DNA of 64,000 nt from Mustelus asterias. Lineage: Eukaryota. Within the stretch, counting starts at the first letter, position 1. Each line of letters opens with the position of its first letter. The notes beneath the pieces are model-generated. The model was not told the origin of the DNA, did no database searches, and was given only the letters and a program-made list of their open reading frames with translations. The stretch covers positions 7,316,001 through 7,380,000 of the forward strand of contig NC_135830.1 in NCBI RefSeq assembly GCF_964213995.1, written 5' to 3'. A program made the position numbers and the translations under genes. Below, piece by piece: positions 1 to 25,049 of this stretch.

Positions 1-502
1 CACACTTAATAATACCAGGAAATTCTTGTTATCTACAAGCCCAAATTGCACAATGATAGCCATCTGCACTCTAAATAGATTTTTTTAAAAATCTAGTTAC
101 TTAGTTACAGAAATCGATAATAATTCATCTGATCAATTAAGCTTTATTATTGTAATTTGACAGAGACCCGGAATTGTTGCAAAATAGACTGACGGTCCCT
201 TTATTCTCTGAAAATGTAATTTATGAATTTTAGTTTTGTCTTCGTGTTAGGGGCGTGCACATAAATTGACGATATTAACAATGAAATTAGCTTTTTTATG
301 AAGCGATGATGAACTGCAATAATACCATGAGAAATAATGGGCGCATTACATTCAGTCAAACAAATATCCCGATACAGATAAAATGTCCATTTTAATATTA
401 ACCTCTTGTAAATCTCGGAGTCCATTCTGTTGGGGTGTGGAAGGTGGGACGTGGATCCAGTCGCCGCCTCCAGCAGGGAATCAACAGGCGGCGCCTGGAA
501 AG

Positions 503-529
503 CCGCCCCCTTCTGCCGGGTATTTAAAT
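503..529 (+). promoter_or_regulatory. Candidate VH promoter: GC box (CCGCCCC) and TATA-like TATTTAAAT about 80 nt upstream of the leader ATG
   Basis: The motifs are seen directly and their position relative to the leader exon fits a core promoter. No ATGCAAAT octamer was seen nearby. Confidence 0.5.
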
Positions 530-606
530 GCCACTCACGGGACCGGAATCCTACAGTCCGGGAGCTGGTTTGTTCACTGAGTTCCTGACACAACCATTTC
601 CCTAAA

Positions 607-664
607 ATGACCAGAAAGATGAGGTCGGCGATTTCTCCCAGTTTGTTGCTGACTTTCTTATCCG
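607..664 (+). CDS. IGHV: IgH leader exon (MTRKMRSAISPSLLLTFLS/G; alternative ATG at 619)
   Basis: Hydrophobic signal peptide ending in a phase-1 donor G|GTGAGT at 665. It splices in frame to the AG acceptor at 796-797, giving [10 protein letters not shown]. Confidence 0.92.
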
Positions 665-797
665 GTGAGTAGTTTTTTATTGTCCAAGTCTCTCACTGTT
701 ACTGTCTCATTGTTAGTCTATCTCTGGCATGTTCCAGAAACAGGAATCATTTCACCAGGATTAATTCTCGTGTTTTTTTAAATATATATTTACACAG

Positions 798-1168
798 GTG
801 TCCAGTCGGAGGTTATCTTGACTCAGCCAGAAGCAGAGAGCGGGCGTCCCGGTGGCTCCCTGAGACTGACTTGTAAAACCAGCGGCTTCGATCTTGATCG
901 TTACGTCATGCACTGGATCCGACAGGTTCCCGGACAGGGGCTGGAGTGGTTGGTTCACTACTATTCTCCATCGGATAAACGGTACTCCCCAATCCTTCAG
1001 AGCCGATTTACTGCGTCCAAAGACACTTCAAACAACTTTTTCGCTTTGACAATGAACAATCTGAAGATTGAAGACACCGCCAACTATTACTGTGCAAGAC
1101 ACAGCAGTGGTAGTGATTACCGGGTATCGGCGACTGGGGAAAAGGGACCATGGTGGTGGTGACTGTAG
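798..1168 (+). pseudogene. IGHV: Pre-joined VH-D-(D)-JH exon of shark IgM type; J is out of frame with V by one base as written
   Basis: V reads [27 protein letters not shown]...[12 protein letters not shown]...[10 protein letters not shown] 32-nt junction follows at 1100-1131, then [12 protein letters not shown] and donor G|GTAAG at 1169. No RSS lies between V and J. The V frame hits TGA at 1160-1162. Confidence 0.88.
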
Positions 1169-4084
1169 GTAAGAACCATGCATTTATTCGGTAACAGCTT
1201 CATTTATGTTTTTGTTCAATATTTTTATCTGTTTTACCTGTAATGTGGGTTTTGTGGAATCTGAACTGAGAAATTTTAGCAATGTGATTCTGCTGAAAAG
1301 GGGTTATGGAATTCATTCCTTTCTTGTGATTTGGTATTTATCTGCTGAGGATACTGTGTCGCTTATTTAGAAAATAATCTCCGATGGGATGTGGGATAAT
1401 TCCAGAGTTTTATTGTTTTATTGTTCTACCTCCATTTGTTTCAAATCTCGGGCTCCAGATCTTTCCCTGGGTCTCGAGATTACTCGCCCAGTGAAAGTAC
1501 CACTATGTCACCAGTTCCCCAAGCATCGTAAACCGTTTGGCGTTTTTACGAGGTTTAATCTAGTGTCATCTGATGGCTGCAGGTTGTACCATCAACAGTA
1601 TAAGTATTTGTAAACTAACCCAATGTTAACAAAATATACTGAGGTTTCTATATTAATTTACTGTACCTGTCCCGCTTACCCACAATGCTGATATTTATGT
1701 TTTGCTAAACTATCCATTCACTTGGTAGCAGATGGATTTGGTAGATTCGAGATTGAGATTTCCTTGCAATGTTGCATTTGATTTTGCTGGAAATCAATTG
1801 TAGAATTGAACTGCTTCTAAATGAAACGTGTTTGAATCCCTCAGTGATATAATTTGGTGTTTTTTGCGATGAATAGATTGTGAGTTTGAATGAATTCGAA
1901 TATGTAGAATTTTTGAAACGGTTTGGAGTTTCTGCGTTATTTAATCTAGGTGCCACTGAGCGGTTACAGGTTTTCTGTTTCATACAGAAAATATAAGCGT
2001 TTGAAACTGCTTGAAGCACGATTGTGGACAGTAAACAGGCTGTTAGTGCATTTATACATTTTCAATGATTAAACGAAGCCACCGTTTACGACGCTCGTTC
2101 ACAACATAGTTTGGCGTTTGTGCAATATTTCATCTCGGTGTCATCCGATGGCGACAGGTTTTACCATCCACTTCAAATATTAATGCTTAAAATGTTTGAT
2201 ATATGAGCCAATATGAATAAAATGCGGTGAAGTTTCAAGACTAATTCGTCAGACATGTTCCACCTGCTCACAATACTATCGCTACTGTTAGTATCAAATT
2301 AATATAATTGAAAGAATCAAAATTCTGATCTTAAGAAATTTTCTGAGAGGTGGAAGTCGCTGGTAGTTAAGAAATTGTTCAGATGATTTTATTTGCTTTG
2401 TAGGAATGTTCAGACTGCATATCACTAGAGAGTGAAAAGAGGAAGCTTGAAATTTAAACAGATTGATTCAACTGCAAAAGGTTGAATTAACTTTGCATTT
2501 AATAATAACATCCTGTCTCTTGTCCATGTGCTATACACGAGACATAATTATAAGTGGAAACGATGACATGATCGAAGAACAGATTATACCTGAGCCTTAT
2601 ACTTGATTCATATTAAATATTTAATTGAACAACAAAATACAGTCTCAATTTGTTCATCATGCTTCAGTGCCACAGGCGATCTAATGAGTTGTTCTGATCA
2701 GGTTTTACAGTCATTAAACTGGATCATCTTCAATGGAACAATATAATTAATAAGATACAGCGATAGTCAGTGTTATTAACTCTAATAAACACTTTTATTC
2801 ATGACAAACTGCTGAGATATCTATATTATATACAATGTTTAAAATATTGATTTTATGATTTACCAATGCGCTCAAAAATAAACATTTTTTATTTTTTGTA
2901 AGTTAAATCGGGACATATGGAGTAAAAGTACAAAAAGCAAAACATTCAAATGTGAATGAAGTTAAGCAAAAGTAACATACATGTCTCAATATTTCCATCC
3001 ACTGTCTTGAAATGTATTGTTTAATACTGTTGAATTGTTTGGGTATTTTAATTAAACCCCAATTATTCCACAAAGTTCTAAGTAGAAACAATGTTTGGAT
3101 TTTTGAAACCTACTTATTTAAATTATTTTCATTACAGTGTGCAAAGCAACTCATTGCAAAACTAACAGACGATTAATAATAAATTACAACATAATATTAG
3201 TACTGAGTAATTCAACATAAACAAGTTCCTACAATTGAGTTGTACACAGGTGCGCAAAATATCAAAAGATTTTACGAATTTTAGTTGCACCTGAAATTAA
3301 CTTAGAAAACAATACTTTATTTATTTAGCTGTGCTCAGCTCAATAGGCTGTTTTGTTTTGATTATTTTTTTGAAAAACTTTAATTATGGAACCAGAGCAA
3401 ATCAGTGGGTATCGGTTTGTAACATGAATATTTCCTGATGTGTTTAATTCTTACCATACCACTATGTCTTCGTTACGGACGCCCATTCAATACGAATCTG
3501 TTAGATTTGATGTGCTCCATTTCAGTCAAGCTACATTGTCCCAGTATTCGAGATTTCAGACGGACAACGAGACTCGACTGGAGTCTAGAAATGAATATCA
3601 GCTTATATTTAAAGTGGTTATTGATTTTTTTGTTATTGCAAGTTAACCATTGATCAATTAGAATCAAACGGTTTGAATGAAATTGGCTGATTAAACAGAC
3701 CTATCTGCTCGGAGCTCGATTGGTGCACCGTTTGTGCGTGTCATGTTTCTGTGCGCGTCCTCACTTTCCTGACTGGTTGTGGACCTTCTGGTTTCTTCTC
3801 CTGTGCTTCAGGGAGTGAAAGTTGATCAACTTGTATCTGCGAGGAATGTGAAAGTGTGACTTGATGTTTGACCAGGCGCCTCAGAAATGAGATCCCGAAC
3901 CCAGATTGTGACAGTCAGAAAGAACAATTCGGAAATGTCAGGCAGACTGTAGAAGAAGATTTGGTTATTTTTTACCAGCGATGTATCGGTCTTGGGAATG
4001 TTGAATTAGGAAGTACAGAGGGCGGTTTGTTTTATTTCAATCCTTCCTTTAGCAGTTTTTGGCCTATTTAATGGGGCAATGTTT

Positions 4085-5759: not shown

Positions 5760-5843
5760 ACGTACACACATTACACGCACGCACGCATGCTCTCTCTCCC
5801 CACCATATATCTCTCAGATACACAAACCACTTTCAAAAACACC

Positions 5844-5887
<44 letters not shown>

Positions 5888-5983
5888 GTTTCCCTCTTAC
5901 ACACAGAAAACCCATATATACCAACGCTCTTCCATAAATTCTCTCACACACCCACACACAAACTCACTCTCTCACACAGTCTT

Positions 5984-6014
<31 letters not shown>

Positions 6015-7460
6015 GAGAAGTACTCTCGCTCTCCCATACACTTTCTCACACACCCACATATGATCGCACTCTCACACACTGTCCCTCACACAGCCTCTCT
6101 CTCAAACACAGTCTCTCATACACACACACCCCCACACAAAAACACGCACACAAATACACATGGTTTATCTCCCTTACACATATAGACAATAAGAAGTCTC
6201 ACAACACCAGGTCAAAATCCAACAGATTTGTTTGGAATCAGGAGTTTCGGAGCACTGCTCCTTCATCAGGTGAGCTGGTGATTCCAAATAAACCTGTTGG
6301 ACTTTAACCTGGTGCTGTGAGACTTCTTACTGTGCCCAGCCCAGTCCAACGCCGGCATTTCCACATTATGGCAGACAGACATGTTCTCTCACACACAAAT
6401 TCCCACTCTCGCACACATATTCTTTCTCTCACACACAGTGTCACATATGCGCGCTCTCTCATGCACTCATTCTCTCATAAGCTCTCTCTCATCTGAAAAC
6501 TTTCTCAAAACCACTGTCTCTGGCAAACACACTCCATTTCTCTCTTTGACAGGAACACTCTGTCATACACACAGTATTTCCCACACGATCTCCCTCACAC
6601 AACTCTCTCGCACAGTCACTCGCTCACACACTCTATCTCTCACACACAAAAGCAGTCTCTCTCTCACACACTCACACAAACAAATTATCTCACATACAGA
6701 ATCTTGCGCTCAAACACACATTCCTTTCTCTCTCAACAACGCATTTTCACGAACATTCTCTCAAATGTTTTCTCAGACATTCACACACGCACTTTGTCAC
6801 ACACACAGATTCTCTCCCCTTCATATTCTCACACACACTCCCTCACACATTCATACTTACTCTCACACACACTCTCTCTCTCTCTCACGCACACTCGATT
6901 TCGCAAATTCTCTCCCTCACACTTTGTCTCTCTGTCGCACACATAATTTCTTTCACACAAACAGTCGCTCATATATGCACACTCTATCTTATGCTGATAG
7001 TTTATCATGTGCACACCCTCGCTCTCTCACACACAATCATTGTCTCGCAAGTACAGACACTCTCACACACAGTCCCTATATCTCAAATACAGACACTCTC
7101 AAACACACTCCCTATCTCTCAAACAGAGGCACTCTCAAACACACTTTCACATTCACAACCGCTCTTCAAAAACACACATTCTTTCTCTTTCACACACTCT
7201 CTCTCTCACACATACTGACGTTCACACACTCTCTTACACAAAATTGCCTCTCCTTCTCAATCACTCGCACATAATCACTGTCTGACATACACTCTTGCTC
7301 ACGCACACCCTCACGCAGGCATCTCTCTCATTCATACACATCTGCTGTCGCTCTCACCCACATTCAAACATGAACTTTATTGCTCTCTCTCTCTTTCTCT
7401 CACGCACAAACACACACACACACACACGCATGCACCCACACACTGCCCACACTTTCCCTT
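5760..7460. repeat. Long degenerate (CA)n/(CT)n low-complexity tract
   Basis: Seen directly. It produces spurious His/Thr/Ser/Leu-rich ORFs. Confidence 0.95.
6191..6370. mobile_element. Penelope-like pLTR remnant forming a ~50-bp-arm inverted repeat around a hammerhead core
   Basis: Arms 6191-6240 and 6279-6328 are near-perfect reverse complements. The minus strand of the loop reads CTGATGA-AGGAGCAGTGCTCC-GAAA. A related copy lies at 54639-54747. Confidence 0.7.
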
Positions 7461-7479
7461 CAACACACAGATGAGAGTG

Positions 7480-7900
7480 ACTGTCCTTGACAGCATTTGA
7501 CAGAGTGTGGCATCAAAATAGCCATGCAAACTGGAGCCAATGGGAGTCAGAAGAAACATTCTCCTCTGGTTGGAGACATACCTGCCATAATGGAAGATGT
7601 ATTAGGTAGTTGGAGGGCAATTATCTCAGCTCCTGGACCTCACTGCGGGAGTTCCTCGAGATAGTGTCCAGGGCTCAACCATCTACAAGGACAGCAGATA
7701 CGTGGGAACATCAAAAACTGGAAATACCCCGACAAGCCTTTCATCATTCTGACTTGGAAACATATCACCGTTCCTTCACTGTGGCTGGTTCAAATCCTGT
7801 AACTGCCTCCTGACTGAAGTTGTTGAAGAAGGCAGCTCACTAAAATCTTCACAATTATGGATCGGAAATAAATGTTGGCATAGCCAGCGGCTCCCACATC
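7480..7900 (+). mobile_element. Degenerate non-LTR retrotransposon fragment (RT motifs plus 3' end)
   Basis: AFDRVWH...WLETYL...VGGQLS...TAGVP(R)DSV, disrupted RT motifs. Confidence 0.7.
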
Positions 7901-7949
7901 ACAGGAAAAAAAACACATTATCTGACATCGGACCTGGAGTAACTGGGAA

Positions 7950-8535
7950 TGATCATTCACTCATGCATGCTCATTCACCTCTCTCACTCGCCCATCCTCA
8001 CTCACCCACACTCATTCACCCACCATCGCTCACACACACTCACCCGCACTAATCCACCCGCACTTAGTTACCCTTACACACTCACCCACACTCACTCGCC
8101 CTCATTCACATTTGCGCTCTCATTCTCACTTACCTAACCTCACTTACCTACCCTCACTCACCGACTCACCCAAACTCACTCGCCCTCATTCATCCTCATC
8201 CACCCTCAATCACTTACCGTCACTCACTCTCCCTCGAACACCCTCACTCACTCACCCTCCCTCACACACTCACCCTCACTGTCACACCCACGCTCACTCA
8301 CCCACCTCACTCACTCACAATCATTTGCTCGCATCACTCAACCTCACAAATTTACCCATCCTCACTCACGCTCACTCACTCTCCCTCATCACTCACCGTC
8401 AGTCATTTGCCACTTTCATTCACTCACCCTCGACCACAGGCACTCACCCATTGTCAGATACTCACCCACCCTCACACACTCAGTCTGACAAGTCCACCCT
8501 CACTCACTGACACACAATCTCTCACTCTCAGTCAC
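7950..8535. repeat. (CACT/CACC)n low-complexity tract
   Basis: Seen directly. Confidence 0.9.
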
Positions 8536-9334: not shown

Positions 9335-9634
9335 TGACACACTCTCCGCCTATTCTCTACGGACTGGTCTCCTCCTGTCAGCAACACAACACCGACGGTT
9401 CCGTCACCTACGGCTGTTTGGCGATGGACTACTCTCCAGAGGTCACCAAACTGACCTGGAAGAAAAATGGGCAGCCGATCGCCACTGGGTTTCAGACTTA
9501 CCCGTCAGTGAGAAACACGCAGGGAACCTACACCTTGATCAGCCAGTTAACCATCACCGAGTCAGAGGGAGAATGCAGCAAAATCAACTGTGAGGTTCAA
9601 CACAGCGGCTCAGACAAGAGAACTGAAATGCCAT
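9335..9634 (+). CDS. IGHM: IgM constant exon Cmu1
   Basis: TTTTCCAG acceptor; C1-set domain [15 protein letters not shown]...[10 protein letters not shown]...W...NCEVQH; phase-1 GT donor at 9635. Confidence 0.95.
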
Positions 9635-9839: not shown

Positions 9840-10154
9840 GTTCTAAAGATGACATCACTCCAACCGTTATCCTCACCGTGAGTTCCAGTGAAGAAATCAA
9901 ACGCAGGGAATTGGCAACCATCGTCTGTTCAATCATCGATTTCTATCCAAGATCTATCACAGTGAAGTGGCTGAAGAATGGACAGTCCATGGATTCAATA
10001 ATTGTCAGCTCCCCCGCCTGGGAAGCGAACGGAAACTTCTCAGCGAGCAGTCTGCTGACAGTCTCCCCTGGGGAATGGTTTAGCAAAGCAGTCTATACCT
10101 GCCAGGTCACTCATCAAGGGCTCACCCAAAGTCGAAACATCACCACATCTTCGG
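9840..10154 (+). CDS. IGHM: IgM constant exon Cmu2
   Basis: [20 protein letters not shown]...[12 protein letters not shown]...W...YTCQVTH; AG/GT phase-1 boundaries; frame open. Confidence 0.95.
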
Positions 10155-10521: not shown

Positions 10522-10830
10522 ATTCTTCCCACTGCACTGATTCCACAGTGACGATTCTGCAACCATCAATAGAACAGGTCTTACTGGAGGCGACTGTTAC
10601 CTTAACCTGCATCATTTCTAATGCTCCTTATGGAGTCAACGTGTCCTGGATCCGAGAAAAGAAGTATCTGAAATCAGAGATTGCCGAAAAAACGGGAGAG
10701 GATCCTGACAGCGTGGTCAGCAACTTAAACATCTCGACACAAGCCTGGCTGAGTGGGGCTCTGTTTGAATGCGTGGTAAACCATCAGGATCTGCCCACTC
10801 CTTTAAGAAGTTTCATCCACAAGGAAGAAG
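10522..10830 (+). CDS. IGHM: IgM constant exon Cmu3
   Basis: [30 protein letters not shown]...W...[14 protein letters not shown]; CCCAG acceptor and G|GTAAG donor. Confidence 0.95.
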
Positions 10831-13662: not shown

Positions 13663-14054
13663 ATCCACAACCATGGGAACCGTCCGTCTCTGTCCTCCTG
13701 CCCTCGGCAGAAGAAATCGCCGCTCAGAAATTCGTCTCCCTCAGCTGCTTAGTCAGTGGTTTCTCGCCTCGAGAAATCTTCGTCAAGTGGAACGTTAATG
13801 ACAAGCCGGTGAATCCCGGGAACTACAAGAATACCGAGGTGATGGCGGAGAACGGCAATAGCTCCTTCTTCATGTACAGCCTGTTATCCATTGCAGCGGA
13901 GGATTGGGCCAGCGGCGCTTCTTACTCCTGTATGGTGGGACATGAAGCCATCCCCTTGAAGATCATCAACAGAACAGTTGATAAATCCAGCGGTAAACCC
14001 AGTTTTGTGAACATTTCCCTTGCACTGATGGACACTGTTAATTCATGTTATTGA
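13663..14054 (+). CDS. IGHM: IgM Cmu4 plus secretory tailpiece (internal donor after 13992 for the membrane form)
   Basis: [19 protein letters not shown]...[18 protein letters not shown]...[11 protein letters not shown]...DKSS|[20 protein letters not shown]. The tail has an N-glycan site and a penultimate Cys. Internal G|GTAAAC donor. Confidence 0.96.
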
Positions 14055-17423: not shown

Positions 17424-17542
17424 ACCGCATCTGGATTGAAGACAATGAGGATGATAACAACAACATCTGGACAACCGCTTCCACATTCGTCGTCCTATTC
17501 TGCCTGAGCATGTCCTACAGCGCTGGTGTCACTCTGGTGAAG
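17424..17542 (+). CDS. IGHM: IgM transmembrane exon TM1
   Basis: (D)RIWIEDNEDDNNNIWTTASTFVVLFCLSMSYSAGVTLVK, an acidic spacer plus an antigen-receptor TM motif; in frame with the Cmu4 internal donor; GTGAG donor at 17543. Confidence 0.92.
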
Positions 17543-17679: not shown

Positions 17680-17688
17680 ATCAAGTGA
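17680..17688 (+). CDS. IGHM: IgM TM2 exon (IK*; cytoplasmic tail KIK)
   Basis: TTTTTACAG|ATC AAG TGA, analogous to the conserved KVK tail. Confidence 0.88.
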   Translation: MK

Positions 17689-20308: not shown

Positions 20309-20764
20309 ATGCGGCTGCTCAGCATCTGGGCTGTGTGGGGAATATTTCAGACAGGTAAATGTGGATGCGCTCCTTCATTCCCCAAGCTTGACTGGAATCA
20401 AATTTCAATCAGCCACCGGACTAAACTTTTCCTTATTGATATATTATTTTCCAGATTTAAGTCATGAGAGATTCTGTCACTCAGCCGCTACCCTCAGATG
20501 TTAAGTCAGAAGGAGCAGCGGTCATATTAAGCTGCAACTATGAAACTACACAGAGCAGGTATGTATTGCACTTGTACCGACAACTCCCAGGAAACCATCC
20601 CGAGTTTATAGTGCGGAGAAATACATACAACAGTGAAGATAAAGCAGACTTTGCCAAAAACCGTTTCTCTATGGAGCTTCGGATATCGACTAAATTCACC
20701 AGTTTAACCGTTTCGGACCTGCAGCTGACTGATGTCGCCGTGTATTACTGCGCTTTCCAGCTAT
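20309..20764 (+). pseudogene. TCR alpha/delta-type V segment (leader 20309-20354; V exon 20455-20764), defective
   Basis: Leader MRLLSIWAVWGIFQT; V DSVTQPLPSDVKSEGAAVILSCNY...LYRQ...RFSMEL...DVAVYYCAFQL. One extra base near 20467 shifts the leader out of frame with V, and the conserved WYRQ Trp is Leu. Confidence 0.88.
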
Positions 20765-20803
20765 CACAGTGATGGAAAGCAGTCTCACCCCTGCACAAAA
20801 ACT
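20765..20803 (+). promoter_or_regulatory. 23-RSS
   Basis: CACAGTG, 23 nt, ACAAAAACT. Confidence 0.95.
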
Positions 20804-23669: not shown

Positions 23670-23708
23670 AGTTTTTGTGCAGCAGTCAGACTGCTTTCTA
23701 TCACTGTG
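23670..23708 (-). promoter_or_regulatory. 23-RSS
   Basis: Minus strand CACAGTG, 23 nt, ACAAAAACT. Confidence 0.95.
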
Positions 23709-24165
23709 AGTTTCAGTGAGAGCGCAGAAATACAAGGCAGCGTCAGTCAGCTGCAGACCCGAGATGGTCAAACTGGTGAATTTACTCGATGCCTGAAGTT
23801 CTCCAGAGAAACGGCTTTCAGCAAAATCTGCTACATCTTCACCAAACATCGAGTTTTTCCCCACTGTAACACAGGGTGTTGCCGGTACCAGTATAAATTG
23901 TAGTTGCTCATTCTAGTATCATAGGTACAGTTCAAAGTCACAGTTTTTCCTTCTGTCTGTTATTCTGAGGACAGCGACTGAGTAACAGAATCTCCATGAC
24001 TCAGATCTGAAAATCATGTTCGAACGAAAACAGATCAGACCGACTGAATCCGTAAAATTCAGTTCAAAAACAAGTTTGTAAAATTAAAGTAGATATGAAA
24101 TGCGTTTGGTCCATAATTCCCTGTCAGGAATGTTCCCGCACAATCCAGAAGCTGAGTAGCAGCAT
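23709..24165 (-). pseudogene. TCR alpha/delta-type V pseudogene (paralog of the 20309 V), inverted
   Basis: Leader MLLLSFWIV is frameshifted with its donor mutated to GG. The V exon from 24006 reads DSVTQSLSSE*QTEGKTVTLNCTY...WYRQ, then a frameshift, then RFSGELQASSKFTSLTISGLQLTDAALYFCALTET. Confidence 0.9.
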
Positions 24166-24677: not shown

Positions 24678-25010
24678 ATGCTCCGAATTCACAGACTCTG
24701 TTTGCTGTGTTTCGCTCTGACCTGCACTGGGGTGACTGGAGCAGATGAGGTGATGCAGCTTCATCGGCGGAAGGTTGTTAGTGAAGGGGGAACCTTATCC
24801 ATGAACTGCACCACGACCACTACATTTAGCAACGTATATTGGTCCCGACAGTCCCCGAATCAGCCACCCCAGTATCTGGTGATGGCCAGAACAGAAACCG
24901 ATTAACGCGAGAGGATCACTGCCTCAATCGGCGGAGACAGCAAATTCAGCGCCCTGACTGTGAGAGACGCCAAAGTTACAGACACTGCCACCTATCTCTG
25001 CGCCGTGAGC
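24678..25010 (+). pseudogene. TCR alpha-type V with leader and V in one intronless exon; a single in-frame TAA at 24903-24905
   Basis: MLRIHRLCLLCFALTCTGVTG-ADEVMQ...MNCT...VYWSRQ...TD*RERITASIGGDSKFSALTVRDAKVTDTATYLCAVS, all in one frame. Confidence 0.88.
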
Positions 25011-25049
25011 CACAGTGTGACAAACATAGGGTGAGCCCATACAAAAACC
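25011..25049 (+). promoter_or_regulatory. Perfect-consensus 23-RSS
   Basis: CACAGTG, 23 nt, ACAAAAACC. Confidence 0.97.

Follow-up and report, generated by a model that had tools for sequence, protein, structure and literature searches.

The stretch of DNA analysed here, the window, comprises 64,000 nt of the genome of Mustelus asterias (GCF_964213995.1, NC_135830.1, positions 7,316,001–7,380,000 of the forward strand; contig C71) and holds an IgM heavy-chain gene on the plus strand. A TATA-like box (521–528), recognised by sequence and presumably functional, precedes the leader exon (619–664), which has its ATG at 619 and an in-frame upstream ATG at 607. The next exon (798–1168, 371 nt, with AG and GT borders) carries V, D and J parts in a single piece, and no RSS lies between V and J. 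The constant region consists of C-mu1 (9335–9634), C-mu2 (9840–10154), C-mu3 (10522–10830), and C-mu4 with the secretory tail and stop (13663–14054, donor after 13992), followed by TM1 (17424–17542) and TM2 with its stop (17680–17688), both read from the sequence. The leader, the four C exons, the secretory tail, and both TM exons are all open and bordered by AG and GT, in agreement with the sequence-only reading that had described this gene as intact outside the junction; in the leader, however, a T>C substitution at 638 changes Leu7 to Pro (Leu7Pro), a private change absent from both sister copies described below. C1, C2, C3, and C4 are 78, 68, 82, and 88% identical, in order, to a named shark IgM (P0036), and protein searches match shark VH and IgM (up to 76% identity), although none of the 5 matches inspected, out of 40, holds a CDR3 resembling that of the window. 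With one V-D-D-J set, four mu exons, a secretory tail, and TM exons, the gene is an elasmobranch IgM heavy-chain minicluster. Its J–C intron contains, just upstream of C-mu1, a degenerate CA/CT-rich tandem tract with strong GC skew (5770–8500).

The VH coding segment (798–1102) retains its full germline 3' end and is identical in both unjoined sisters. From that end (1102) to the J Trp codon (1135), V and J are fused by a junction of 32 nt with no RSS, as originally described. The motif CACAGC had been suspected of being a retained heptamer from an aberrant joint. It is instead the V end AGACAC, found in several unjoined clusters, overlapping by 2 nt an exact 10-nt match to the core of the commonest germline D1 (1101–1110), and it is also present in both unjoined sisters. 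Five untemplated-looking bases (1111–1115), possibly N nucleotides, mark the old D1–D2 joint, and are followed by a diverged D2 (1116–1127) that resembles a common germline D2 at 8 of 12 nt in a by-eye comparison; this 12-nt piece stops exactly where the 12-RSS heptamer of the sisters starts. The D2–J joint (1127–1128) leads into a trimmed JH (1128–1168). The V frame is open into the junction and then runs off the J frame, reaching a TGA at 1160–1162, 6 nt before the GT donor at 1169; adding one base regains the J frame.

A search of the genome with positions 798–1170 yielded 44 matches (195 candidates, 40 scored, 30 loci examined), among which two copies, L002 (C270) and L003 (C128), are 100% identical to the query over its positions 1–331 and 330–373, with a gap between both parts. 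These sisters therefore match the window perfectly over 798–1128, V-D1-D2 junction included, after which come a 12-RSS, a spacer, a 23-RSS, and the complete J, which extends 7 nt further on the 5' side. Compared with a sister copy, the window lacks exactly 390 nt; the cuts lie at the RSS borders, no bases were added, and the leader intron, J–C intron, and flanks of the window are collinear with those of the sisters. The D2–J spacer of the sisters is itself 68–71% identical to those of other clusters, in six of the six tested. A junction 24-mer (at most 2 mismatches) occurs at exactly three places in the genome, namely the window and the two sisters. A degenerate V-end-to-J pattern finds two places in the 3.68-Gb genome (the window and the locus L004) and none with a reversed control, which excludes chance for the V–J fusion of the window; since the pattern is exact, its count of fully joined clusters is a lower bound. 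With its segments fused, its RSSs and intervening DNA gone, and its introns and flanks kept, the window cluster has the structure of the germline-joined IgH type.

Collinearity of the three copies is confined to a shared block that runs from about −110 kb to about +58 kb, which is consistent with paralogous segmental duplicates. The view that they are simple alleles of one locus is not supported, because none of the three pairs is collinear past about −115 kb or +66 kb (340–364 kb compared), and the copies may also represent strongly rearranged haplotypes. A processed or retroposed cDNA was discarded, given the introns and the roughly 170 kb of collinear flank. Within the duplicated block, the window also holds TCR V-like segments at about 20450–20765 (+), 23700–24040 (−), 24700–25011 (+), and 27700–28100 (+), and at 30270–30809 (−); three of them have a 23-RSS match, some are broken, and that at 30270–30809 is open. 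These downstream segments agree with the IgH–TCR alpha/delta linkage reported in the accessible part of PMC12227049. Between −67 and −19 kb, the window copy is 90–97% like C270 and C128, which are 99.8% alike, whereas just upstream of the IgM gene it is 99.7% like both of them. This mosaic suggests conversion or recombination of the core. Codons varying among the copies amount to 10 of 610, five amino-acid changing and five silent (two and one in the window copy, including a private Arg>Ile codon at 9998 in C-mu2), too few for a selection test or for showing relaxed selection.

The deletion that separates the window from its sisters has the sequence features of a RAG coding joint: a 12/23 RSS pair is lost, the ends lie at or near the heptamers, and trimming is small. 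Either D was trimmed by 0 and J by 7 nt, or D by 1 and J by 6, and nothing was added; no P bases are visible in this joint. Very probably, an old half-joined IgM cluster was duplicated, and one of the duplicates, that in the window, recently underwent a non-productive D2–J joining by RAG in the germline.

The frame of the joint could be explained in another way, namely that D2 and J were first joined in frame in the germline, producing an invariant antibody, and that one base was lost later. A one-base difference is all that separates the observed joint from an in-frame one (J trimmed by 6 and D not at all), the D end and the J start share a 3-nt overlap that would favour it, and the fully joined L004 of the same genome is in frame. 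However, this reading requires the joint itself to have mutated a second time, although the copy shows just one private substitution over the surrounding 2,101 nt and, from −500 to 4000, no private indel besides the joint. Simple D2–J trims are in frame in 26 of 77 cases and out of frame in the remaining 51, like the observed one, so that an out-of-frame joint is an ordinary outcome that calls for no second event. In-frame joining followed by decay is hence considered improbable, although it is the best preserved of the alternatives.

Somewhat less probable still is a RAG-independent germline deletion that removed the D2–J spacer through the 2-nt microhomology. Two letters fit either side of the joint, and because the D heptamer contributes its first base to this overlap, the letters are compatible with a non-RAG deletion as well; moreover, there are no P or N bases that would mark a hairpin or TdT. 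Against it, the ends of the deletion lie at most 1 nt and 7 nt away from the respective heptamers of a 12/23 pair, and a random deletion ending at both RSS borders has a rough chance of about 3e-5 or less, even if its ends are confined to 400 nt of the RSSs. In addition, eight other loci of the 30 examined are joined or half-joined at coding-segment ends.

The abundance of the joint in public DNA runs bears on whether it was inherited. Five of the 21 listed runs (X1, X2, X4, X8, and X12) were compared, for the window's family only. X1 and X2 come from one sample, whose tissue and library are not on record and which may be the assembly's own source, and they cover the J–C intron evenly, thus behaving as DNA. 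Both contain a 58-nt contig over 1099–1156 with no other letter, no gap, and no inserted letter. Aligned to L002, the joint that skips exactly 390 nt has a depth of 19.1 in X1 and 25.2 in X2, the unjoined spacer of 22.6 and 22.5, and the shared flank of 39.7 and 47.1, these contig depths being no copy numbers and having no single-copy baseline in either run. A three-variant haplotype private to C270 is found at depths of 12.7 and 12.0, versus 26.7 and 34.4. Among the six copy models tried, two joined copies to one and one fits best (rough score of 1.7, with 8.7 for the next and 12.6 for 1:1:1), and under either of the two plain models the depth of the joined form equals or exceeds that of a normally inherited copy. 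In the bulk DNA of this one sample, of unrecorded tissue, the joint therefore stands at the level of an inherited copy. Most single-base differences between the copies are absent from the public-run contigs, but contigs drop variants, and the window-specific base at 3253 is read differently in them. X8 and X12, other samples with the same species label, have no contig spanning the junction. The earlier proposal of a recently fixed, non-productive germline RAG event is supported as to the recent, non-productive RAG event, whereas a single sample covering the site does not show its fixation.

These depths weigh heavily against a third alternative, a somatic lymphocyte rearrangement captured by the assembly or a sample consisting mostly of a single lymphoid clone. 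According to the accessible portion of PMC2435157, shark B cells commonly carry out-of-frame VDJ joints, and the only sample that covers the site has no recorded tissue. Nevertheless, one single junction accounts for about half of the depth of the cluster family in both X1 and X2, the joined form is deeper than the C270-type haplotype, and the V exon shows no mutation relative to the sisters. The somatic B-cell read proposed from the letters is, with the joined form as deep as the unjoined one, close to refuted, and a somatic origin of any kind is a shade less credible than the deletion through microhomology.

Finally, a functional invariant germline antibody hidden by a one-base homopolymer error, as envisaged by the sequence-only reading, would suit the intact leader, C exons, and splice sites, but has practically no standing left: the exon is indeed one base short of the J frame, yet the G thought to be missing from GGG at 1122–1124 is not, because both sisters and the unblemished public-run contig have the same three G, which places the frameshift at the D2–J joint and outside the G run.

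The order of the joining events can be read from a second organism. In X4, a run of another species label (organism B), a 582-nt contig matches the window over 1007–1125 and over 1127–1192, with 3 differences in each part and 397 letters, whose sequence is not displayed, in between; the joined form was not found among the X4 contigs, which prove presence and not absence. X4 therefore has a V-D-D join that is unjoined to J, so that the V-D-D fusion predates the split of the species and the D–J joint is derived. In addition, a long branch (0.19) separates the V of the window's group from those of the other 27 loci. Around the gene, the window copy differs privately at 13 of 11,900 nt (0.11%), and at 39 of 21,888 nt (0.18%), with similar numbers in the sister copies, compared with 49 differences in 881 nt (5.6%) between intron pieces of the window and organism B. 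The joint would then have formed within roughly the last 4–6% of the time since the species split, an age that is relative only, with no rate for an absolute date, and that gene conversion could have biased downward, making the joint look younger, given that the window copy is mosaic.

A three-step history may be proposed for this very probable germline joint. In a first, old step, V, D1, and D2 would have been fused in frame in an ancestor, presumably by RAG in the germline, leaving one D2–J joint to make, a state that is seen in the two sister copies and in the run of another species label. Subsequently, a block of about 170 kb comprising the cluster and the neighbouring TCR V segments would have been duplicated, its core being kept alike or homogenised, to give the three copies now seen. 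In a recent third step, one copy would have used its remaining 12-RSS/23-RSS pair: RAG would have cut in a germ cell or very early embryo, the ends would have been joined in the absence of TdT, and the product would have been inherited.

Having lost its RSSs, the window copy cannot rearrange again within the cluster. An early stop upstream of four exon junctions makes a transcript a likely target of NMD, and the mRNA of the window, which is predicted to stop 6 nt before the J donor, would likely be subject to such decay. The window copy is probably a young pseudogene, tolerated because the sister copies remain, although its C exons are all still open and thus show no decay yet, which counts against this reading. 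The sister VDD-J cluster, for its part, is open, in frame, and conserved, and represents a candidate limited-diversity IgM.

Other IgH clusters of this genome are found in several joining states. The 30 loci examined comprise 21 unjoined V-D-D-J clusters, four VDD-J (L002, L003, L022, and L023), two V-D-DJ, two fully joined, and one apparent IgM/TCR hybrid. L022 and L023 (G000:C597:54436-57734 and C105:79349-82647) constitute another VDD-J family of independent origin; their junction differs, and their 12/23 RSS pair is intact. The second fully joined VDJ, L004 (G000:C166:441290-444654), is in frame (CARHVQQWGMGYW), and the nearest unjoined locus examined is 95% identical to it upstream; it is a candidate invariant antibody. 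In the identical V-D1-D2J clusters L009 and L010 (G000:C971:52623-55927 and C143:779637-782941), D2 is fused to J, while V and D1 retain their RSSs. Their upstream regions are 99.1–99.3% identical to those of L007 and L006, and they are probably another young join.

The hybrid locus, L006 (G000:C138:216667-219971), has its V on the minus strand, and its features lie 455–800 nt past the YYC codon. It holds an IgM V with a 23-RSS and an IgM D1 with a 12-RSS, and four extra bases link the 3' end of this D1 to a short D-like piece, followed by a 23-RSS, which we take to be, as to its chain, a TCR-delta D. About 250 nt past this piece lies a TCR J-like exon (..AKLIFGNGTRLIVEP, with a GT donor), and the 1.5 kb upstream are 99.7% identical to the normal IgM cluster L007. 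The locus thus has the appearance of a fusion between an IgM D1 and a TCR-delta D.

Germline joins in sharks are attributed to RAG acting in germ cells, and the accessible text of PMC2193156 dates them from light chains, with bounds of at least 7 Myr. The window touches the question of whether such joins are random or kept only when in frame. It is also a clear example of a probable germline joining event that, far from yielding an innate-like antibody, inactivated a gene. Since the same genome contains both the product and its exact parent, which differ in length by 390 nt, the age, spread, and frame-blindness of the process become directly testable. A wider reading can be offered tentatively, although it is rather doubtful as a whole: the joint might still segregate, some animals having it joined and others unjoined or without the copy, so that RAG would still be editing shark germ cells, stepwise (V-D-D long ago with N-like bases, D–J now without them) and blind to frame, and the parent would be a conserved semi-invariant IgM heavy chain varying only at its D2–J joint.

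Among known systems, the accessible part of the review PMC5192425 describes VD-J, VD-DJ, and VDJ IgM clusters in cartilaginous fish, as well as IgM1gj, which has no CH2. The window family shares this layout, and VDD-J and VDDJ states both occur in it; however, that text lists the joined states as separate kinds, while derivation within near-identical duplicates is a feature of the window family. Nurse shark IgM1gj (P0040; PMC5192425, same part) and the window both hold a fully joined VDJ on a mu-type constant region. In contrast, IgM1gj has no C-mu2, is in frame, and is secreted in neonates, whereas the window has four C domains, its C-mu2 being present and open as the sequence-only reading had pointed out, and is out of frame. 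The V of the window is 63% identical to that of IgM1gj versus 68–75% to conventional shark VH, and the window gene is not an IgM1gj.

Somatic VDD-J and out-of-frame VDJ rearrangements of nurse shark lymphocytes, as far as the accessible text of PMC2435157 describes them, show the same configurations and the same kind of joint. However, they are formed per cell and their junctions differ, unlike the window, where one junction makes up about half of the bulk-DNA depth.

A close parallel is provided by the NS4 light chains of the nurse shark (PMC2193156, of which the accessible part is considered here), where joined genes derive from split ones, the youngest within 7 Myr, and where joining is placed in germ cells with little sign of TdT; the same text refers, with Kokubu 1988 as its source, to heavy-chain genes in which VD or VDD are joined. 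As in the window family, joined and split NS4 genes are up to 99% alike in one genome, and their joints, like that of the window, resemble V(D)J coding joints that were trimmed and received few N nucleotides, and are ascribed to RAG in germ cells. Two of the six joined NS4 genes are called pseudogenes, while R4 and R18 are expressed in pups; the joint of the window, for its part, is out of frame. A fully joined heavy-chain gene accompanied by a half-joined parent with an identical junction was not found in the literature searched, most subscription journals and supplements lying outside that search, which is a weak indication that this parent–product pair is new. Compared with NS4 in the text cited, the window concerns a heavy chain, with two separate joining steps, a private change of 0.1–0.2% set against a youngest bound of 7 Myr, and an exact surviving parent whose V and V-D-D junction are identical to its own.
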